This document shows, one piece after another, positions 1-10,126 of a stretch of 10,126 bases of DNA. The DNA lies in the IMG/VR virus record IMGVR_UViG_2541047830_000006, one strand, 5' to 3'. The position numbers and the translations under genes were made by a program. The first letter of the stretch is position 1. Each line of letters starts with the position of its first letter. This stretch comes from a virus (taxonomy: Duplodnaviria > Heunggongvirae > Uroviricota > Caudoviricetes). Under the pieces are notes generated by a model that was not told the origin of the DNA, did no database searches, and saw only the letters and a list, made by a program, of their open reading frames with translations.

Positions 1-129
1 GTCGATTTAGATATGGCTACCGAGGAAGAAAAGTTAAGCCTGACACACTGGAAAAAATACCGTGTGCTACTGAATCGCGTTCAGCCGGAAAATGCTCCGG
101 ATATAGAATGGCCAGAAATGCCGCAATAA
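1..129 (+). CDS. Tail fiber assembly protein, C-terminal fragment (5' end lies outside the window)
   Basis: Frame 1 is open from base 1 to TAA at 127-129 and reads [42 protein letters not shown]. The [11 protein letters not shown]...APDIEWP tail matches, from memory, the conserved C-terminus of enterobacterial Tfa / P2 gpG-type proteins. Confidence 0.7.
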
Positions 130-190
130 ATCGTATTAGCTCTGGTATGAGATTACTCATCTATGGCACAGAGTAAAACCTAATCAGGCT

Positions 191-215
191 GTCCGTTCCG
201 TGCCAGGAGCGGACG
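191..215 (+). repeat. Hairpin-forming repeat, copy A (9-bp arms GTCCGTTCC / GGAGCGGAC, loop GTGCCA)
   Basis: Seen directly: 22 of 25 positions identical to 1114-1138, including an exact 16-nt match GTGCCAGGAGCGGACG. The arms pair 9/9 if one G.U pair is allowed. Confidence 0.6.
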
Positions 216-356
216 TTGTAAAGTTTATTTGGAGAATAATGGTTAGAAGAACTATGTAGATCATAGCCCTCTAAAGTCAGTAGTCTTACACCATATAAAT
301 GGTCATTTAGAGATAGTACACCACCTACAAAAAACGAGATAAAGCGTGCAAGCGGC

Positions 357-542
357 ATGAAGATACATAAAATACTCCATTCTGCACTTGATGTTAGGAT
401 GAATACTGACACTCGCTTTGTAAAGATAAAGATGATCTTGAGGATGATTAGTTTATTAATTATCTCCAATGTTTGTTATTTTGTGATGATAAAGATTCTC
501 TGGATTAATAGGATGGTAATTCAATTAAAAGAGACCTTATAG
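357..542 (+). CDS. Hypothetical small hydrophobic protein (61 aa), doubtful
   Basis: ATG-initiated ORF with a hydrophobic stretch (MISLLIISNVCYFVMIKILWI); its stop TAG 540-542 sits inside the bidirectional terminator hairpin. No convincing Shine-Dalgarno upstream (caagcggcATG), and AT-rich DNA gives spurious ORFs easily. Confidence 0.2.
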   Translation: MKIHKILHSALDVRMNTDTRFVKIKMILRMISLLIISNVCYFVMIKILWINRMVIQLKETL

Positions 543-554
543 AAGGCCTCTTTT
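527..554. terminator. Bidirectional rho-independent terminator (stem GAGACC / GGCCTC with one mismatch, loop TTATAGAA, A4 and T4 flanks)
   Basis: Hairpin 531-550 is flanked by AAAA (527-530) and TTTT (551-554), so a U-run follows the stem on either strand. It lies 25 nt beyond the stop (579-581) of the reverse-strand membrane protein gene. Confidence 0.5.
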
Positions 555-578
555 AAGTTATGAGAGCTGATTTTATAT

Positions 579-956
579 TCAATAGAGTATTCTCATCGAA
601 GAAATAACCTCATAAAATGTAAAGACAGCCAGCAAAAAAATACAGATAAAGATAAGGGAAATAGCACACTTAACTAAGGACTGAATCCCCCGAGGTGTTC
701 CCCATGGTTTAGACATTTGGGTTATAACCCAAATAAATAGGGCCATAAAACAGCAAACACCAGCCAATCCGAGCAGAGATATTATGACAACTCCAAACAG
801 ATTTCCAACATCTAGTTTATCTGTTTTTGCAACTAGGGTTAACAAACCAGCAATAATAGTTGCTATCGATATTCCCGCAATGGTTGTGAGATCAGCGATA
901 ACAGCCAGTTTTTCTTTAGTATTTCCTTGAGTAAAAACCTCTAAAATTGATTTCAT
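579..956 (-). CDS. Hypothetical small integral membrane protein (125 aa, about 3 predicted TM helices)
   Basis: ATG start (rc of 954-956) is preceded by AGGTGG (rc of 966-971) at 9-nt spacing. Three long hydrophobic segments (about residues 17-43, 53-78, 91-118). Has its own candidate promoter and terminator; no family recognised. Confidence 0.7.
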   Translation of the reverse strand: MKSILEVFTQGNTKEKLAVIADLTTIAGISIATIIAGLLTLVAKTDKLDVGNLFGVVIISLLGLAGVCCFMALFIWVITQMSKPWGTPRGIQSLVKCAISLIFICIFLLAVFTFYEVISSMRILY

Positions 957-978
957 GGAAAATAACCACCTACTATCG

Positions 979-1008
979 ATTATATTCAGGAACTTTTTAT
1001 CATAACAA
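979..1008 (-). promoter_or_regulatory. Candidate sigma70 promoter for the membrane protein gene (-35 TTGTTA, 18-bp spacer, -10 TATAAT)
   Basis: On the reverse strand TTGTTA is the rc of 1003-1008 and TATAAT the rc of 979-984. The -10 is a perfect consensus; the spacer is at the long end and the leader would be very short. Confidence 0.4.
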
Positions 1009-1113
1009 TATCAGATAGATAAGGATATTGTAATATTTTGGATGATTTAAACTTACTTTTGTAACTCTAATGTCCACTTTTCGCTCACAGCGGACCTTTA
1101 GCTCAGTTACCTC

Positions 1114-1138
1114 GTCCGCTTTGTGCCAGGAGCGGACG
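1114..1138 (+). repeat. Hairpin-forming repeat, copy B (arms GTCCGCTTT / GGAGCGGAC, loop GTGCCA)
   Basis: Seen directly: 22/25 identity to 191-215. All three differences lie in the 5' arm and keep pairing only if G.U pairs are allowed, i.e. as RNA from the + strand. Confidence 0.6.
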
Positions 1139-1398
1139 CTAACCTGATTGACGGGAAATCATATTAAGTCGGCATAAAAAATTAGAATATCTTTAGTGAT
1201 TATTACTAATGTGTGTGTATAACTTATGCCTAATTTATCGCTCCGGCTGAGGGAATCTTGCCTCCGCTGTCACTTTTAGGTATGTTAACAACTATTTTTA
1301 CAGTGGTTCCGAGTTATGCTATCTAACAGATTACTTGAACCGAGTCCGTTTATCAGTATGGCGTTTTATATGCTCAGAGTCCATCCAAGGAGTGACTT

Positions 1399-1875
1399 TT
1401 GAAATTTGAACAAATCTATAAAAATATTACTGGCCTTAGCTGTCCCATATTCGGGATTCAGTGGAATGCTCCAATAATAGAAACTGACGAAGCGAAGAAG
1501 ATCGTCATTTTTCTTGAGGACAAGCGCGTTCTTTTCAATCCTGTCGACATGGAGGGTGCTAGTCATTGCACTTCGAGTGTTATCAACATTAGATCTGAAT
1601 TGACTAAAGTCCTACAAGGTTTGCCGAGCGATTCACATTTAGCAAAACAATTAAGGAAAATGAGAAAAGCATGCCAAGAATTCTGTGACAGCGTTGGCTC
1701 CCCTCACTTTATCCAACTTGATCATCCTGTTCAAATATCCATACTTGAGCGAGCCCTTTTTAAACTGCGACAAAAGTGTGGTAACTCTCTGGCAGAAATA
1801 GCGGTTACCTATGGTCTTGATGTTGATGACGGATTGGCCAGTATTATCCCTTTTAATAATCCCAGTAACATATAG
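1399..1875 (+). CDS. Hypothetical protein (158 aa), TTG start, function unknown
   Basis: Strong Shine-Dalgarno AAGGAG (1387-1392) sits 6 nt before TTG 1399. The frame is closed just upstream by TGA 1393-1395, so the start must be this TTG or a later codon. No hydrophobic segments; no family recognised. Confidence 0.5.
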   Translation: MKFEQIYKNITGLSCPIFGIQWNAPIIETDEAKKIVIFLEDKRVLFNPVDMEGASHCTSSVINIRSELTKVLQGLPSDSHLAKQLRKMRKACQEFCDSVGSPHFIQLDHPVQISILERALFKLRQKCGNSLAEIAVTYGLDVDDGLASIIPFNNPSNI

Positions 1876-2038
1876 CAATGACTATGAATTTGCTTGCTGG
1901 ATTAATTATCATGCAACCGACAGTTTTGGGTCGGAAGCGGTTAGCAAATTAGTCATTAGTGAGTCGTTATGTCCGTTCATCGCTCAAAGCAGACTGTCAG
2001 ATTTAATAGCGTTTTGATTATGTAACTTGTCAGTTGGA

Positions 2039-2047
2039 AGCTGAGTG
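2039..2047. repeat. IS10 target site duplication, left copy (AGCTGAGTG)
   Basis: Identical 9-mer at 3377-3385 immediately flanks the other IS10 end. It is close to the known IS10 target preference GCTNAGC (one mismatch). Confidence 0.85.
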
Positions 2048-2087
2048 CTGATGAATCCCCTAATGATTTTGGTAAAAATCATTAAGT

Positions 2088-2128
2088 TAAGGTGGATACA
2101 CATCTTGTCATATGATCAAATGGTTTCG
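2088..2128 (+). promoter_or_regulatory. IS10 pIN region (weak transposase promoter; -10 TATGAT overlapping a Dam GATC site)
   Basis: TATGAT at 2111-2116 overlaps GATC 2114-2117, as expected near IS10 bp 64-70; the -35 is poor, consistent with a weak promoter. Placement is from remembered IS10 biology. Confidence 0.45.
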
Positions 2129-2162
2129 CGAAAAATCAATAATCAGACAACAAGATGTGCGA
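2094..2162 (-). ncRNA. IS10 RNA-OUT antisense RNA from pOUT (approximate coordinates)
   Basis: From remembered IS10 biology RNA-OUT starts near IS10 bp 115 and runs toward the outside end. A TAAAAT -10 (rc of 2170-2175) is correctly placed for a reverse-strand start near 2162. Ends not verified. Confidence 0.4.
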
Positions 2163-3363
2163 ACTCGATATTTTACACGACTCTCTTTACCAATTCTGCC
2201 CCGAATTACACTTAAAACGACTCAACAGCTTAACGTTGGCTTGCCACGCATTACTTGACTGTAAAACTCTCACTCTTACCGAACTTGGCCGTAACCTGCC
2301 AACCAAAGCGAGAACAAAACATAACATCAAACGAATCGACCGATTGTTAGGTAATCGTCACCTCCACAAAGAGCGACTCGCTGTATACCGTTGGCATGCT
2401 AGCTTTATCTGTTCGGGCAATACGATGCCCATTGTACTTGTTGACTGGTCTGATATTCGTGAGCAAAAACGACTTATGGTATTGCGAGCTTCAGTCGCAC
2501 TACACGGTCGTTCTGTTACTCTTTATGAGAAAGCGTTCCCGCTTTCAGAGCAATGTTCAAAGAAAGCTCATGACCAATTTCTAGCCGACCTTGCGAGCAT
2601 TCTACCGAGTAACACCACACCGCTCATTGTCAGTGATGCTGGCTTTAAAGTGCCATGGTATAAATCCGTTGAGAAGCTGGGTTGGTACTGGTTAAGTCGA
2701 GTAAGAGGAAAAGTACAATATGCAGACCTAGGAGCGGAAAACTGGAAACCTATCAGCAACTTACATGATATGTCATCTAGTCACTCAAAGACTTTAGGCT
2801 ATAAGAGGCTGACTAAAAGCAATCCAATCTCATGCCAAATTCTATTGTATAAATCTCGCTCTAAAGGCCGAAAAAATCAGCGCTCGACACGGACTCATTG
2901 TCACCACCCGTCACCTAAAATCTACTCAGCGTCGGCAAAGGAGCCATGGATTCTAGCAACTAACTTACCTGTTGAAATTCGAACACCCAAACAACTTGTT
3001 AATATCTATTCGAAGCGAATGCAGATTGAAGAAACCTTCCGAGACTTGAAAAGTCCTGCCTACGGACTAGGCCTACGCCATAGCCGAACGAGCAGCTCAG
3101 AGCGTTTTGATATCATGCTGCTAATCGCCCTGATGCTTCAACTAACATGTTGGCTTGCGGGCGTTCATGCTCAGAAACAAGGTTGGGACAAGCACTTCCA
3201 GGCTAACACAGTCAGAAATCGAAACGTACTCTCAACAGTTCGCTTAGGCATGGAAGTTTTGCGGCATTCTGGCTACACAATAACAAGGGAAGACTCACTC
3301 GTGGCTGCAACCCTGCTTACTCAAAATCTATTCACACATGGTTACGCTTTGGGGAAATTATGA
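2155..3363 (+). CDS. IS10 transposase (402 aa)
   Basis: Full-length ORF starting MCELDILHDSLYQFCPELHLKRL..., recognised as IS10/Tn10 transposase. ATG lies at element bp 108 as expected and the ORF ends 13 bp before the inside end. Confidence 0.95.
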   Translation: MCELDILHDSLYQFCPELHLKRLNSLTLACHALLDCKTLTLTELGRNLPTKARTKHNIKRIDRLLGNRHLHKERLAVYRWHASFICSGNTMPIVLVDWSDIREQKRLMVLRASVALHGRSVTLYEKAFPLSEQCSKKAHDQFLADLASILPSNTTPLIVSDAGFKVPWYKSVEKLGWYWLSRVRGKVQYADLGAENWKPISNLHDMSSSHSKTLGYKRLTKSNPISCQILLYKSRSKGRKNQRSTRTHCHHPSPKIYSASAKEPWILATNLPVEIRTPKQLVNIYSKRMQIEETFRDLKSPAYGLGLRHSRTSSSERFDIMLLIALMLQLTCWLAGVHAQKQGWDKHFQANTVRNRNVLSTVRLGMEVLRHSGYTITREDSLVAATLLTQNLFTHGYALGKL

Positions 3364-3376
3364 GGGGATCTCTCAG

Positions 3377-3385
3377 AGCTGAGTG
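3377..3385. repeat. IS10 target site duplication, right copy (AGCTGAGTG)
   Basis: Exact 9/9 match to 2039-2047, directly abutting the IS10 inside end. Confidence 0.85.
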
Positions 3386-3400
3386 AGAACAAATCAAGGC

Positions 3401-3432
3401 AGGCGGGCTGATTGCCCGCCTTTTCTTTATTT
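3401..3432 (+). terminator. Rho-independent terminator (8-bp GC-rich stem AGGCGGGC / GCCCGCCT, loop TGATT, then TTTCTTTATTT)
   Basis: Perfect 8-bp stem 3401-3408 / 3414-3421 with a 5-nt loop and a T-rich tract. Before the IS10 insertion it lay about 190 bp downstream of the 158-aa cargo ORF; it now sits between IS10 and the FI promoter region. Confidence 0.8.
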
Positions 3433-3500
3433 GTTGTTTCATCCACTGGCCAGCCAGGTCAAATAGCGTCTCATGCTCTGCACAACAGAAAATAGTTGCA
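3432..3500 (+). promoter_or_regulatory. Putative Ogr-dependent late promoter region for the FI operon
   Basis: Position (between terminator and FI start) is what P2 biology predicts. It contains an 8-bp perfect palindrome CTGGCCAG (3446-3453) and an imperfect TGT-N12-CCA (3435-3452) rather than a clean TGT-N12-ACA site. Transcription start not determinable from sequence. Confidence 0.3.
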
Positions 3501-3524: not shown

Positions 3525-4715
3525 ATGAGTGACTATCATCACGGCGTGCAGGTGCTGGAGATTAACGACGGCACCCGCGTCATTTCCACCGTATCCACGG
3601 CCATTGTCGGCATGGTCTGCACGGCCAGCGATGCGGATGCGGAAACCTTCCCCCTCAATAAACCGGTGCTGATAACCAATGTGCAGAGCGCAATTGCAAA
3701 GGCCGGTAAAAAAGGCACGCTGGCGGCATCGTTGCAGGCCATCGCCGACCAGTCAAAACCGGTCACCGTTGTCGTGCGTGTGGAAGACGGCACCGGCGAC
3801 GACGAAGAAACGAAACTTGCGCAGACCATTTCCAATATCATCGGCACCACCGACGAAAACGGTCAGTACACCGGACTGAAAGCCCTGCTGGCGGCGGAGT
3901 CGGTAACCGGTGTTAAACCGCGTATTCTTGGTGTGCCGGGACTGGACACCAAAGAGGTTGCCGTCGCACTGGCATCAGTCTGTCAGAAGCTGCGCGCTTT
4001 CGGGTATATCAGCGCATGGGGCTGTAAGACCATTTCCGAGGTGAAAGCCTACCGCCAGAATTTCAGCCAGCGTGAGCTGATGGTCATCTGGCCGGATTTC
4101 CTCGCATGGGATACGGTCGCCAGTACCACCGCCACCGCGTATGCCACCGCTCGTGCACTGGGCCTGCGTGCTAAAATCGACCAGGAGCAGGGCTGGCATA
4201 AAACGCTGTCCAACGTCGGGGTAAGCGGTGTTACCGGCATCAGCGCCTCTGTATTCTGGGATTTGCAGGAGTCCGGTACCGATGCTGACCTGCTTAACGA
4301 GTCAGGCGTCACAACGCTGATTCGCCGTGACGGTTTCCGCTTCTGGGGTAACCGTACCTGCTCTGATGACCCGCTGTTCCTCTTTGAAAACTACACCCGC
4401 ACCGCGCAGGTGCTTGCCGACACGATGGCTGAGGCGCACATGTGGGCGGTGGACAAGCCCATCACCGCAACGCTGATTCGCGACATCGTTGACGGCATCA
4501 ATGCCAAATTCCGTGAGCTGAAAACAAACGGCTATATCGTGGATGCGACCTGCTGGTTCAGCGAAGAATCCAACGATGCGGAAACCCTCAAGGCCGGAAA
4601 ACTGTATATCGACTACGACTATACACCGGTGCCTCCTCTTGAAAACCTGACCCTGCGCCAGCGTATTACCGATAAATACCTGGCAAATCTGGTCACCTCG
4701 GTTAACAGCAATTAA
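3525..4715 (+). CDS. FI: Phage tail sheath protein (P2 gpFI-like, 396 aa)
   Basis: Full ORF with GGAG Shine-Dalgarno 8 nt upstream. Sequence MSDYHHGVQVLEINDGTRVIS... is recognised as P2-family FI and the length matches the 396 aa I remember for P2. Confidence 0.95.
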   Translation: MSDYHHGVQVLEINDGTRVISTVSTAIVGMVCTASDADAETFPLNKPVLITNVQSAIAKAGKKGTLAASLQAIADQSKPVTVVVRVEDGTGDDEETKLAQTISNIIGTTDENGQYTGLKALLAAESVTGVKPRILGVPGLDTKEVAVALASVCQKLRAFGYISAWGCKTISEVKAYRQNFSQRELMVIWPDFLAWDTVASTTATAYATARALGLRAKIDQEQGWHKTLSNVGVSGVTGISASVFWDLQESGTDADLLNESGVTTLIRRDGFRFWGNRTCSDDPLFLFENYTRTAQVLADTMAEAHMWAVDKPITATLIRDIVDGINAKFRELKTNGYIVDATCWFSEESNDAETLKAGKLYIDYDYTPVPPLENLTLRQRITDKYLANLVTSVNSN

Positions 4716-4727
4716 GGAGCCTGACCG

Positions 4728-5246
4728 ATGGCAATGCCGCGCAAACTCAAGTTAATGAACGTCTTTCTGAACGGCTACAGCTATCAGGGCGTTGCAAAGT
4801 CCGTCACGCTGCCAAAACTGACCCGTAAGCTCGAAAACTATCGCGGTGCGGGGATGAACGGCAGCGCACCGGTAGACCTCGGCCTTGATGACGATGCGCT
4901 GTCAATGGAGTGGTCGCTCGGGGGCTTCCCGGATTCGGTTATCTGGGAGCTTTACGCCGCAACCGGCGTGGATGCCGTGCCGATTCGTTTTGCAGGCTCT
5001 TACCAGCGTGACGATACCGGCGAAACGGTGGCCGTCGAAGTGGTCATGCGTGGACGTCAGAAAGAAATCGACACCGGAGAGGGTAAACAGGGAGAAGACA
5101 CCGAGTCGAAAATCTCCGTGGTCTGCACCTATTTCCGGCTGACGATGGACGGTAAGGAGCTGGTCGAAATCGACACCATCAACATGATTGAGAAGGTGAA
5201 CGGCGTCGACCGGCTGGAGCAACACCGCCGCAATATCGGCCTGTGA
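4728..5246 (+). CDS. FII: Phage tail tube protein (P2 gpFII-like, 172 aa)
   Basis: ORF starts 12 nt after the FI stop, preceded by AAGGAG. MAMPRKLKLMNVFLNGYSYQG... is recognised as P2-family FII; length matches. Confidence 0.95.
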   Translation: MAMPRKLKLMNVFLNGYSYQGVAKSVTLPKLTRKLENYRGAGMNGSAPVDLGLDDDALSMEWSLGGFPDSVIWELYAATGVDAVPIRFAGSYQRDDTGETVAVEVVMRGRQKEIDTGEGKQGEDTESKISVVCTYFRLTMDGKELVEIDTINMIEKVNGVDRLEQHRRNIGL

Positions 5247-5302: not shown

Positions 5303-5578
5303 ATGAACAAAGAAAATGTGATTACCCTGGACAATCCGGTCAAGCGTGGTGAGCAGGTTATCGAACAGGTCACGCTGATGAAACCCAATGCCGGGACGCT
5401 GCGCGGTGTCAGTCTGGCTGCGGTCGCGAACTCCGAAGTCGATGCACTGATTAAAGTGCTGCCGCGCATGACGGCACCGATGCTGACTGAGCAGGAGGTC
5501 GCCGCGCTGGAGCTGCCTGACCTTGTGGCGCTGGCCGGTAAGGTGGTCGGTTTTTTGTCGCCGAACTCGGTGCAGTAA
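5303..5578 (+). CDS. E: Tail assembly chaperone E (P2 gpE-like, 91 aa)
   Basis: ORF MNKENVITLDNPVKRGEQVIEQ... ending TAA 5576-5578. It contains the slippery heptamer T-TTT-TTG at 5551-5557 in the X-XXY-YYZ register of the E frame. Confidence 0.9.
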   Translation: MNKENVITLDNPVKRGEQVIEQVTLMKPNAGTLRGVSLAAVANSEVDALIKVLPRMTAPMLTEQEVAALELPDLVALAGKVVGFLSPNSVQ

Positions 5579-5730
5579 CGTTTCCGAAAAATCTCTCGGT
5601 CGATGACCTGATGGCGGATGTGGCAGTGATATTTCACTGGCCGCCATCAGAACTGTATCCCATGAGCCTGACCGAACTCATCACATGGCGCGAAAAGGCG
5701 CTCCGGCGAAGCGGAAACACGAATGAGTAA
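5303..5730 (+). CDS. E': Tail assembly chaperone E+E' produced by a programmed -1 frameshift at TTTTTTG (5551-5557); predicted 142 aa
   Basis: After a -1 slip the reading frame stays open from 5557 to TAA 5728-5730, giving 85 + 57 = 142 residues ending ...WREKALRRSGNTNE. This matches the known P2 E/E' arrangement (analogous to lambda G/GT). The E' end overlaps the T start. Confidence 0.8.
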
Positions 5731-8169
5731 CAATGTAAAATTACAGGTATTGCTCAGGGCTGTTGACCAGGCATCCCGCCCGTTTAAATCCATCCGTACA
5801 GCGAGCAAGTCGCTGTCGGGGGATATCCGGGAAACACAAAAATCACTGCGCGAGCTGAACGGTCACGCATCCCGTATTGAGGGATTCCGCAAGACCAGTG
5901 CACAGCTCGCCGTGACTGGTCATGCATTTGAAAAGGCTCGACAGGAAGCCGAAGCCCTTGCCACACAGTTTAAAAACACCGAACGTCCGACCCGTGCTCA
6001 GGCGAAAGTGCTGGAATCCGCAAAGCGTGCGGCGGAGGACTTACAGGCGAAATATAACCGCCTGACAGATTCCGTTAAACGCCAGCAGCGAGAACTGGCC
6101 GCTGTGGGAATTAATACCCGCAATCTTGCACATGATGAGCAGGGACTGAAAAACCGTATCAGTGAAACCACCGCACAGCTTAACCGTCAGCGTGACGCGC
6201 TGGCGCGTGTCAGTGTACAACAGGCAAAACTTAACGCAGTCAAACAGCGTTATCAGGCAGGAAAGGAACTGGCCGGAAATATGGCCTCAGTGGGCGCTGC
6301 CGGTGCGGGGATTGCTGCTGCGGGAACGATGGCCGGAGTTAAGCTGCTGATGCCCGGTTATGAGTTTGCGCAGAAAAACTCAGAATTGCAGGCCGTGCTC
6401 GGAGTGGCAAAAGACTCCGCCGAAATGACCGCACTCCGCAAACAGGCGCGCCAGCTCGGTGACAACACAGCCGCCTCGGCGGATGATGCGGCCGGTGCGC
6501 AGATTATCATTGCGAAAGCGGGTGGAGATGCTGCGGCTATTCAGGCGGCAACGCCGGTCACGCTGAATATGGCACTGGCGAATCAGCGGTCGATGGAAGA
6601 AAACGCGCAACTGTTGCTGGGGACTAAGGCATCCTTTCAACTGTCAAATGATGATGTCAGCCATGTGGGCGACGTGTTGTCTGCAACGATGAATAAGTCG
6701 GCGCTGATTTTCAGGGACTCAGTGATGCACTGACTTACCTCGGGCCGGTTGCGAGGACGGCAGGCGTAAGTCTTGAGCAGGCAGCGGCCATGACAGGTGT
6801 GCTGCATGACAATAACATCAGGGGGTCAATGGCGGGTACGGGTAGTAGTGCCGTTGTCACCCGATTACAGGCACCGACTGGAAAAGCATGGGATGCACTC
6901 AAAGAGCTTGGCGTTAAAACCTCGGACAAAAAGGGAAATATGCGTCCGTTGTTCACCATTCTGAAAGAGATTCAGGCCAGCTTTGATAAACACAAGCTGG
7001 GAACGTCTCAGAAGGGGGAATACCTTAAAACCATTTTTGGTGAGGAAGCCCTGAAATCAGCGAACGTTTTACTGGCAGCGGCAGCAAGCGGAAAACTGGA
7101 TAAGCTGACCGCCACGCTGAAAGCCTCGGACGGTAAAACGGAAGAGCTGGTTAAAATCATGCAGGATAACCTCGGCGGTGACTTTAAGGAGTTTCAGTCC
7201 GCTTATGAGGCGGTGGGGACTGACCTGTTTGACCAGCAGGAAGGCGCACTGCGTAATCTCACGCAGACGGCCACAAAGTATGTGTTAAAACTCGACGGCT
7301 GGATCCAGAAAAACAAATCACTGGCGTCAACCATCGGCATCATTGTCGGTGGTGCACTGGCACTGATTGGTGTCATCGGTGCCATTGGCCTCGTAGCCTG
7401 GCCGGTTATCACCGGCATCAATGCCATCATCGCGGCAGCAGGCGCAATGGGGGCAATCTTCACGACGGTTGGCAGTGCTGTTATGACCGCCATCGGGGCG
7501 ATTAGCTGGCCGGTTGTGGCCGTGGTGGCCGCCATTGTCGCCGGGGCGTTGCTTATCCGTAAATACTGGGAGCCTGTCAGCGCATTCTTTGGCGGTGTGG
7601 TGGAAGGGCTGAAAGCGGCATTTACGCCGGTGGGGGAACTGTTCACGCCACTTAAACCGGTGTTTGACTGGCTGGGTGAAAAGTTACAGGCCGCGTGGCA
7701 GTGGTTTAAAAACCTGATTGCCCCGGTCAAAGCCACCCAGGACACCCTGAACCGTTGCCGTGACACGGGCGTCATGTTCGGGCAGGCACTGGCTGACGCG
7801 CTGATGCTGCCGCTTAATGCGTTCAACAAACTGCGCAGTGGTATTGACTGGGTACTGGAAAAACTCGGTGTTATCAACAAAGAGTCAGACACACTTGACC
7901 AGACCGCCGCCAGAACTCAAGCCGCCACGTATGGCAGCGGTGGTTATATTCCGGCGACCAGCTCTTATGCAGGTTATCAGGCTTATCAGCCGGTCACGGC
8001 ACCGGCTGGCCGCTCTTATGTAGACCAGAGTAAAAACGAATATCACATCAGCCTGACGGGTGGTACTGCGCCGGGGACACAGCTCGACCGCCAGTTACAG
8101 GATGCGCTCGAAAAATACGAGCGGGATAAACGAGCGCGCGCCCGTGCCAGCATGATGCATGACGGTTAA
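5723..8169 (+). pseudogene. T: Tail tape measure protein gene T, interrupted by a -1 frame change (real frameshift or single-base sequencing error)
   Basis: N-terminal ORF 5723..6733 and C-terminal ORF 6790..8169 (its frame opens at 6697) together span 2447 nt, one short of a multiple of three. Both frames are open only across 6697-6733, which contains the T4 run 6708-6711. The translations read as one continuous P2-T-like protein across the junction (...SATMNKSAL / DFQGLSDALTYLGPVA...). Confidence 0.75.
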
Positions 8170-8183
8170 GGAGGTGACGAAAA

Positions 8184-8663
8184 ATGATGCTCGCGTTAGG
8201 TATGTTTGTTTTTATGCGCCAGACGCTGCCACACCAGACCATGCAGCGTGAATCAGATTATCGCTGGCCGTCAAATTCCCGTATCGGTAAACGGGATGCC
8301 TACCAGTTTCTCGGTGTGGGTGAGGAAAACATGACGCTTGCCGGTGTGCTTTATCCCGAACTGACCGGCGGCAAGCTGACGATGACCACGCTCAGGCTGA
8401 TGGCAGAGGAGGGGCGGGCGTGGCCGTTGCTGGATGGCACCGGCATGATTTACGGCATGTATGTCATCAGCAAGGTGAGTGAAACAGGGAGTATTTTCTT
8501 TGCAGACGGCACACCCCGGAAAATTGATTTTACGCTGTCGCTCACCCGCGTTGATGAATCACTGGCCGCGCTTTATGGCGATATCGGTAAACAGGCGGAA
8601 TCGCTCATCGGTAAGGCTGGCAGTATGGCGACTAAATTCACGGGTATGACGGGGGCGGGATAA
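8184..8663 (+). CDS. U: Tail protein U (P2 gpU-like, 159 aa)
   Basis: AAGGAGG Shine-Dalgarno upstream; full ORF whose length matches P2 U; stop overlaps the D start (TAATG). Confidence 0.9.
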   Translation: MMLALGMFVFMRQTLPHQTMQRESDYRWPSNSRIGKRDAYQFLGVGEENMTLAGVLYPELTGGKLTMTTLRLMAEEGRAWPLLDGTGMIYGMYVISKVSETGSIFFADGTPRKIDFTLSLTRVDESLAALYGDIGKQAESLIGKAGSMATKFTGMTGAG

Positions 8664-9826
8664 TGCTGGATGCACTGACATTTGATGCAGGCAGTACGCT
8701 GACGCCGGATTACATGCTGGTGCTCGACAGCAGGGATATTACCGGCAATATCAGCGACCGTCTGATGAGCATGACCCTGACGGATAACCGGGGCTTTGAG
8801 GCTGACCAGCTTGATATTGAACTGAACGATGCCGACGGGCAGGTCGAGCTGCCGGTTCGTGGCGCTGTCCTGACGGTGTATATCGGCTGGAAAGGTTTTG
8901 CCCTGGTATGCAAAGGGAAATTCACCGTTGATGAGGTTGAACACCGGGGCGCACCGGATGTGGTCACCATCCGCGCCCGGAGTGCAGATTTTCGCGGGAC
9001 GCTCAATTCCCGCCGTGAAGGCTCATGGCATGACACCACGCTCGGTGCGATTGTTGAGGCGATAGCCTCCCGTAACAGGCTGGAAGCCAGTGTCGCGCCG
9101 TCACTGGCAGGAATTAAAATCCCGCACATCGACCAGTCGCAGGAGTCTGATGCGAAATTCCTGACCCGTCTTGCTGAACGCAACGGCGGTGAGGTGTCGG
9201 TAAAAATGGGAAAACTGCTGTTTCTCAAAGCGGGGCAGGGGGTGACGGCCAGCGGTAAAAAAATCCCGCAGATTACCATCACCCGCAGCGACGGCGACCG
9301 TCATCATTTTGCGATTGCTGACCGCGGAGCCTATACAGGCGTAACGGCAAAGTGGTTACACACCAAAGACCCGAAACCGCAAAAGCAGAAGGTAAAACTG
9401 AAACGCAAAAAGAAAGAGAAACACCTGCGCGCACTGGAGCACCCGAAAGCGAAACCGGTCAGGCAGAAGAAAGCGCCTAAAGTACCGGAAGCGCGTGAAG
9501 GTGAATACATGGCCGGTGAGGCTGACAACGTTTTTGCCCTGACCACGGTATATGCCACGAAAGCGCAGGCCATGCGTGCCGCTCAGGCGAAGTGGGATAA
9601 ACTGCAACGGGGCGTTGCGGAGTTCTCCATCAGTCTGGCTACCGGTCGGGCAGATATTTACACGGAAACGCCGGTCAAAGTGTCAGGCTTTAAGCGCGTC
9701 ATAGACGAGCAGGACTGGACAATCACTAAGGTGACACATTTTCTGAATAATAGCGGCTTCACGACGTCCTTAGAGCTTGAGGTCAGGCTTTCTGATGTGG
9801 AGTACGAAACAGAAGGTGATGAGTGA
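8663..9826 (+). CDS. D: Tail protein D (P2 gpD-like, 387 aa)
   Basis: Start is translationally coupled to the U stop. Full-length ORF with a lysine-rich central segment; length matches P2 D. Confidence 0.9.
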   Translation: MLDALTFDAGSTLTPDYMLVLDSRDITGNISDRLMSMTLTDNRGFEADQLDIELNDADGQVELPVRGAVLTVYIGWKGFALVCKGKFTVDEVEHRGAPDVVTIRARSADFRGTLNSRREGSWHDTTLGAIVEAIASRNRLEASVAPSLAGIKIPHIDQSQESDAKFLTRLAERNGGEVSVKMGKLLFLKAGQGVTASGKKIPQITITRSDGDRHHFAIADRGAYTGVTAKWLHTKDPKPQKQKVKLKRKKKEKHLRALEHPKAKPVRQKKAPKVPEAREGEYMAGEADNVFALTTVYATKAQAMRAAQAKWDKLQRGVAEFSISLATGRADIYTETPVKVSGFKRVIDEQDWTITKVTHFLNNSGFTTSLELEVRLSDVEYETEGDE

Positions 9827-9907: not shown

Positions 9908-10126
9908 ATGTTTCATTGTCCTTTATGCCAGCATGCCGCACATGCGCGTACAAGCCGCTATATCACTGACACGACAAAAGAGCGTTATCACCAGTGTCAG
10001 AACGTGAATTGCAGCGCCACGTTCATCACCTATGAGTCGGTACAGCGATACATCGTGAAGCCGGGAGAAGTCCACGCCGTAAGGCCGCACCCGTTGCCGT
10101 CAGGGCAGCAAATTATGTGGATGTAA
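9908..10126 (+). CDS. ogr: Late gene transcriptional activator Ogr (zinc-finger, 72 aa)
   Basis: MFHCPLCQHAAHARTSRYITDTTKERYHQCQNVNCSATF... carries the Cys4 motif and is recognised as P2 Ogr. GAAGAGG Shine-Dalgarno upstream; stop codon is the last three bases of the window. Confidence 0.9.
   Translation: MFHCPLCQHAAHARTSRYITDTTKERYHQCQNVNCSATFITYESVQRYIVKPGEVHAVRPHPLPSGQQIMWM

Follow-up and report, generated by a model that had tools for sequence, protein, structure and literature searches.

Gene T of the P2-like phages encodes the tail tape measure protein (gpT; PF10145, PHROG 28), and classical P2 genetics places it among the genes that are required for tail formation. It is located between the E/E' pair and gene U of the FETUD operon. 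In the two phage relatives that were inspected in the current study, P2_4C9 and Wphi, T is annotated as a single CDS with a length of 2448 nt, which corresponds to 815 codons plus the stop. Only three to six T chains are required per tail. A cryo-EM preprint on P2 localizes the tape measure in the lumen of the tail tube, where it shows C3 features and possibly comprises six chains, and the C-terminal helices of the protein were built into the gpV spike (bioRxiv 10.64898/2026.09.14.750843). A -1 relation between two overlapping ORFs of the tail operon is represented by E/E' of P2 and G/GT of lambda, and the same relation is found between the two ORFs of the T locus described below.

The window, i.e., the whole stretch of 10,126 nt that was analyzed here, represents the right end of a P2-like prophage, as documented by its ORF list and by the annotation of relatives. 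The gene order starts with the 3' end of G, two cargo ORFs and an IS element, followed on the plus strand by FI-FII-E/E'-T-U-D-ogr, and the placement of T between E/E' and U is the same in the window and in its relatives. The genes for the sheath (FI, 3525-4715) and the tube (FII, 4728-5246) are full length and correspond in size to their equivalents in Wphi and SaT040. The tail chaperone gene E (5303-5578) was assigned on the basis of the ORF list and the annotation of relatives; together with E', which ends at 5730 and overlaps the start of T, it spans 5303-5730, and the programmed -1 site T_TTT_TTG near the end of E (5551-5557) is intact. The genes U (8184-8663), D (8663-9826) and ogr (9908-10126) are full length as well. 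The claim of the first-pass annotation that FI, FII, E, U, D and ogr are intact thus holds for the whole set, all of which, like E', have wild-type length.

The T locus itself (5723-8169, plus strand) occupies the same place in the operon as T of P2 and Wphi, and it shares 97-97.5% nucleotide identity with T of P2_4C9, Wphi and P2 across positions 1-2447 of the gene. Its length is the same bar one base, but the frame is lost after codon 327 and no 815-aa product is encoded. Instead of an uninterrupted 815-codon ORF, the 2447 nt harbor two ORFs. The N-terminal one (5723-6733) encodes 336 amino acids and ends with the stop codon TGA at 6731-6733; its final nine residues (LIFRDSVMH) are out of frame. 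The C-terminal frame (6697-8169) is closed upstream by a TAA at 6694-6696, and its first start codon, ATG 6790, opens an ORF of 459 amino acids. The TGA at 6731-6733 and the C-terminal frame that is open from 6697 had already been reported and were both recovered in the ORF read-out; the stated length of 815 codons plus stop, of which the locus is one base short, matches the 2448-nt CDS of P2_4C9 and Wphi.

A MAFFT alignment and whole-gene global pairwise alignments identified a sole indel relative to the intact relatives, namely one G that is absent after window position 6702. The deletion site (6700-6704, plus strand) reads GGCGC in the window and GGCGGC in the relatives: the ancestral TCGGCGGCTG has been changed to TCGGCGCTG by the loss of a G from the second GG of GGCGGC, and in the longer context TCGGCGGCTGATTTT has become TCGGCGCTGATTTT. 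The lesion accordingly affects a GG dinucleotide that precedes a T4 run by 6-7 nt, within the interval 6697-6733 that had been reported earlier, and the run itself (GATTTTCAG) is the same in the window and in the intact relatives. The proposal that T is one base out of frame at the T4 run was hence correct with respect to the frame (2447 vs 2448 nt, two ORFs) and has to be revised with respect to the site. When one G is put back, the two frames join as had been predicted and result in a stop-free protein of 815 amino acids. The T locus is a pseudogene of T and not a functional member of the P2-type tape measures.

Our comparison with related T genes, which had been suggested as a check of the locus, showed one ORF of 2448 nt in the relatives and 2447 nt in the window. 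A near-full-length homologue of T is present in ~1,560 of the 5,426 complete E. coli genomes. We sampled full-length copies of other lineages, evenly spaced down the ranking of all E. coli T matches (n=56), and found a T span of 2448 nt in 54 of them and an in-frame span of 2439 nt in the other two, while none was out of frame. The 22 next-best megablast matches listed all have a span of 2448 nt. The length of T is near-constant across the P2-like prophages of E. coli, as expected of a ruler protein. In Escherichia phage 11W (NC_070902), whose genome is 97.5% identical, T is annotated as two CDSs. The gene reads as two pieces both in this record and in the window, but the two breaks do not coincide, and that of 11W stems from an ambiguous base: the extra base is an N in the record (L002 ~2839), which is aligned after window position 7060. 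The possibility that phage 11W provides a precedent for a split but functional T was considered and rejected, the split being a record artefact that results from the N.

A megablast search of the window T against the 5,426 complete E. coli genomes revealed 18 genomes that match gap-free over the 2447-nt span, 15 of them identical and three with a single mismatch. The next-best T of E. coli in this set is intact, has a span of 2448 nt and is 97.7% identical. The carriers originate from unrelated projects and comprise SaT040, CD306, CCUG 73778, CU568-3, S21EC/S22EC, USVAST219, REF1, AH21H052, OZ records and the yak isolate LS4. The deleted form of T was furthermore found with 100% identity in four IMG/VR contigs, two of which are metagenomic. 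In a collection of ~15 billion proteins, the exact product of the 336-aa ORF is present on 247 contigs and that of the 459-aa ORF on 234, and the repaired 815-aa T had no exact match in this collection, a look-up that one-residue variants would escape. An intact haplotype was sought with a 69/70-nt junction pattern allowing zero or one extra base. The pattern retrieved four deleted copies (100% identical to the window) and two intact ones (~97% identical) from viral_contigs, only one of those same ~97% intact contigs from metagenome_contigs, and no match from genome_contigs. With an identity to the window of only ~97%, the two intact copies belong to other P2-like phages. Across the junction scans, the megablast search and the protein look-up, no intact T of the window's own prophage lineage was found. 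The frameshift of T is already known from public PGAP/RefSeq annotation, which flags the gene as a frameshifted pseudogene; the flag 'frameshifted' is present on T in all four carriers that were inspected (SaT040, LS4, CD306, OZ040555).

The complete prophage has a size of ~33.5 kb and is located between pflA and pflB in SaT040 and OZ040555, both of which were read end to end; in all other carriers that were read, ogr adjoins pflB. Among SaT040, LS4, CD306 and OZ040555, the chromosomal flank that extends from pflB to aroA shows 99.99-100% identity. The shared integration site and the near-identical flanks are indicative of vertical inheritance, and this synteny indicates that the deleted T allele marks one clone, in which it has been transmitted vertically with the chromosome. 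No sign of a horizontal spread of the deleted allele was seen among the carriers examined. SaT040 has been described as an ST131 clade B reference (PMC13645330), and both SaT040 and CD306 were sequenced as ST131 strains (PMC4933990). The deleted T copies differ by zero to one SNPs among themselves, and this nil decay at the SNP level suggests that the inactivation is recent or that the clone is young. Two sublineages of carriers can be distinguished by a 2-bp indel within window positions 1-2047, which results in matched spans of 8788 and 8786 nt, respectively. The window falls into the 8788 group together with SaT040, and the strains of the 8786 group with annotation read (CD306, LS4, OZ040711) have ISEc12 in G.

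The break bisects the one conserved domain of T, PF10145 (PhageMin_Tail). The N-fragment matches positions 1-90 of the PF10145 profile and positions 106-397 of phrog_28, and the C-fragment matches positions 121-201 and 427-769, respectively. The N-fragment consists of 327 native residues plus the nine out-of-frame ones and is devoid of the hydrophobic centre and of the C-terminus; without the latter it would not be anchorable to the baseplate. The most plausible course of events starts with the loss of a single G from GGCGGC at codon 328-329 of T, which would have happened in the ancestor of one prophage lineage that sits between pflA and pflB of an E. coli ST131-related clone, and the mutation would then have been inherited with the chromosome. 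Translation is predicted to stop after 327 native and nine out-of-frame residues, resulting in a fragment that would be devoid of half of PhageMin_Tail, of the hydrophobic centre and of the helices at the C-terminus that dock on the gpV spike. The polymerization of tube and sheath on the baseplate should not be initiated if a complete tape measure is missing, and the prophage would at best make DNA-filled heads and lyse the cell, but no infectious particles. The deletion in T has very probably inactivated one ST131-related prophage lineage that is now slowly decaying; from P2 genetics we strongly infer the loss of tail formation.

The secondary lesions of the prophage are independent and differ between the carriers. 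In OZ040555, T is the sole pseudogene among ~45 prophage genes, and integrase, C, Cox, B, A, the head and lysis genes and the other tail genes are called intact; the H gene of this strain shows a 27-nt in-frame deletion in a repeat (L008 570-3167). An ISEc12 element of the IS21 family is inserted within G of LS4 (L006 12581-15747), CD306 (L007 581-3747) and OZ040711 (L019 581-3747), and elements of the IS66 and IS4 families replace the H region of OZ038879 (L018 1-2738). H of SaT040 is also flagged as frameshifted by PGAP, with a G6 run that is shortened to G5 (L004 ~14054) in an assembly based on PacBio RSII only. It was examined as a second shared lesion and rejected, as it affects a G6 run in a PacBio-only assembly and is not found in LS4, CD306 or OZ040555; the G5 of SaT040, in contrast to the lesion of T, probably reflects a mistake in the assembly or a mutation private to this strain. 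The frameshift of T is the only lesion common to the carriers and therefore the oldest one. The scattered later lesions in the tail-fibre region fit a relaxed selection on the tail genes.

The IS element of the window is a complete IS10 (2048-3376, plus strand) with a length of 1329 bp and a DDE transposase of 402 amino acids (2155-3363), flanked by a 9-bp target duplication, AGCTGAGTG, at 2039-2047 and 3377-3385. Its insertion site separates the DUF6650 cargo gene from FI; 148 bp lie between the element and the start of FI, and a terminator hairpin (3401-3421) is located downstream of the insertion. None of the 18 complete genomes contains the element, nor do the three IMG/VR contigs that span the site, the fourth (L010) starting only at window position 3525, and its insertion into this prophage is thus a secondary event that is specific to the source strain. 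We asked if the IS10 separates FI from its late promoter and searched for an Ogr-type TGT-N12-ACA dyad, which has no exact match in the window; matches with one mismatch (e.g., 3435-3452) do not exceed the frequency expected by chance.

Both cargo ORFs of the window are located at the Z/fun position of P2, between G and FI. The first one (579-956, minus strand) encodes 125 amino acids and corresponds to phrog_4155 without a Pfam match, the second one (1399-1875, plus strand) encodes 158 amino acids with DUF6650 and corresponds to phrog_29952; neither of them matches a PADLOC defence model. A second cargo hotspot outside the window, between A and the portal gene (SaT040, L005 15052-17551), harbors the PADLOC candidates PDC-M18 (A and B) and PDC-S31. 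Based on these candidate defence matches, the defective prophage keeps a likely anti-phage cargo. The immunity region is of the P2 type and consists of a short C repressor and Cox. P2 is classically non-inducible. Given this type of immunity region, mitomycin C, which had been proposed for induction, is probably unsuitable as a test.

One alternative explanation of the broken frame is a sequencing or assembly error in a genome that truly carries an intact T of 2448 nt, and a homopolymer error had indeed been offered in the first-pass annotation. One-base indels are the commonest type of error, and the G6 run of the neighbouring H gene that was read as G5 in the PacBio-only assembly of SaT040 is a likely example. 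The lesion of T, however, affects a GG dinucleotide and not a homopolymer, its allele is shared by the 18 complete genomes from many laboratories, the four IMG/VR contigs and, for the ORF products, ~240 contigs, and neither an intact T with more than 97.7% identity nor the exact repaired protein could be retrieved. Since the same deletion recurs across independent genomes, contigs and protein records, the reading as a sequencing error is rejected, its residual probability being negligible, and the one-base deletion in T is a genuine inherited mutation. The two products of the locus might alternatively assemble and function jointly as a split tape measure, composed of the 336-aa N-fragment and of a 459-aa C-fragment whose translation would re-initiate at ATG 6790. 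The two ORFs are intact and of considerable length, and with a distance of 57 nt between the stop and the ATG a coupled re-initiation is conceivable. Nevertheless, positions 91-120 of the PF10145 profile, i.e., ~19 native residues, are contained in neither fragment, and a tape measure is a continuous ruler whose C-terminus is anchored to the spike. Moreover, a split gene was found in none of the 56 sampled other lineages, and the sole split in a phage record, that of 11W, stems from an N. We consider a functional split T to be extremely unlikely.

A -1 shift anywhere within 6697-6730 would restore the frame of T, which raises the issue of translational correction. A programmed frameshift had been judged unlikely in the first-pass annotation with the argument that this role is already filled by E/E' upstream; the conclusion stands, but the argument is not decisive. 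Decisive are the 2448-nt T in 54 of the 56 sampled lineages, the missing heptamer and the missing stimulator. The shifted 0-frame codons CTG ATT TTC AGG contain a U_UUC tetramer only, and a slippery heptamer of the type X_XXY_YYZ is absent from the 0 frame at the T break. The fold of the downstream region 6713-6812 has a z-score of +0.28, with 119 of 200 shuffles folding at least as well, and thus provides no indication of a stimulatory structure. Nor is the two-frame organization of T conserved among relatives, as documented by the 56 sampled lineages, P2_4C9 and Wphi. The E/E' site, by comparison, is conserved together with its T_TTT_TTG heptamer, whereas the break of T is restricted to a single lineage, results from a deletion and coincides with a chance tetramer without a stimulator. 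On these sequence features, the break in T is best explained as a mutation and not as a programmed frameshift. A weaker variant is a leaky -1 slip of tRNA-Phe on the tetramer, in the P or the A site and aided by the rare AGG codon that follows the tetramer, which would make some full-length T, enough for a few tails. The only conceivable site for such a correction is the U_UUC of U_UUC_AGG at 6709-6715 (plus strand), a chance U_UU.C tetramer located 7 nt downstream of the deletion that stands in the right register, as the -1 frame is open from 6697. AGG accounts for 9 of the 2099 codons of these genes, and the predicted product would have 815 amino acids and differ solely by AD->LI at residues 328-329 (junction peptide SALIFQGLSDALTYLGPVAR); three to six chains per tail would suffice. 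U_UU.C has been reported to rank second among the tetramers in E. coli if combined with a pseudoknot, but it is effective only with the IS3 pseudoknot, and unstimulated tetramers reach ~0.15% in E. coli compared to a background of 0.11% (PMC4066793). The 100 nt downstream of the motif fold like shuffled sequence, a heptamer is missing, and the motif is an accidental product of the deletion, given that the T4 run was already present in the ancestor; the IS elements and deletions that H and G acquired later furthermore suggest that the tail genes have ceased to be maintained. A leaky correction is accordingly regarded as improbable. If slips took place at ~1% or more, the indel in T would be corrected at the level of translation, and the prophage would still be viable as a phage of low yield or as a P4 helper.

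Even with T as an inactivating mutation, its loss could have been selected, in the sense of an adaptive domestication in which the host keeps the cargo with its candidate defence genes without phage production. The prophage is kept in every sampled carrier, within a near-identical chromosomal background, and its cargo comprises the candidate defence genes PDC-M18 and PDC-S31 as well as the two genes without such a match at the Z/fun position. On the other hand, the prophage retains intact genes for integrase, Cox, replication, packaging and lysis, and a derepressed cell would still die, so that the T defect is without benefit for the carrier cell. With replication and lysis genes intact, the loss of T provides the host with no obvious protection. 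A single frameshift that is fixed in one clone is the prediction of drift, and no parallel inactivation of T was observed among the sampled other lineages (n=56). An adaptive scenario is therefore very improbable. The earlier description as a tail-defective or cryptic prophage that retains its cargo is in agreement with the T frameshift and the presence of the cargo genes, but its designation as domesticated is not supported by the intact replication and lysis genes.

The combination of an inactivating lesion in the essential virion gene T and vertical inheritance at one site characterizes the element as an ordinary defective prophage at an early stage of decay. The P2 remnant of E. coli K-12 that carries ogrK is an example of such a defective or cryptic prophage. 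Cryptic prophages of E. coli, among them this remnant, likewise combine inactivated morphogenetic genes with a fixed site at which they are inherited vertically, and have subsequently acquired IS elements. The decay of the window prophage is at a much earlier stage, with ~45 genes intact and T as the only pseudogene in some strains. In another match, H155, T has been reduced to a remnant of 157 nt.

The frameshift of T opens no biological question, and its value lies mainly in annotation and interpretation. The split T has to be annotated as one frameshifted pseudogene, and represents neither two tape-measure genes nor an assembly error. The one-base deletion provides a clean clonal marker for the lineage. 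In prophage inventories of the ST131-related lineage, the element should be scored as defective, i.e., as an element that is predicted neither to spread nor to provide P4-like satellites with tails, and its candidate defence cargo would now be effectively chromosomal.
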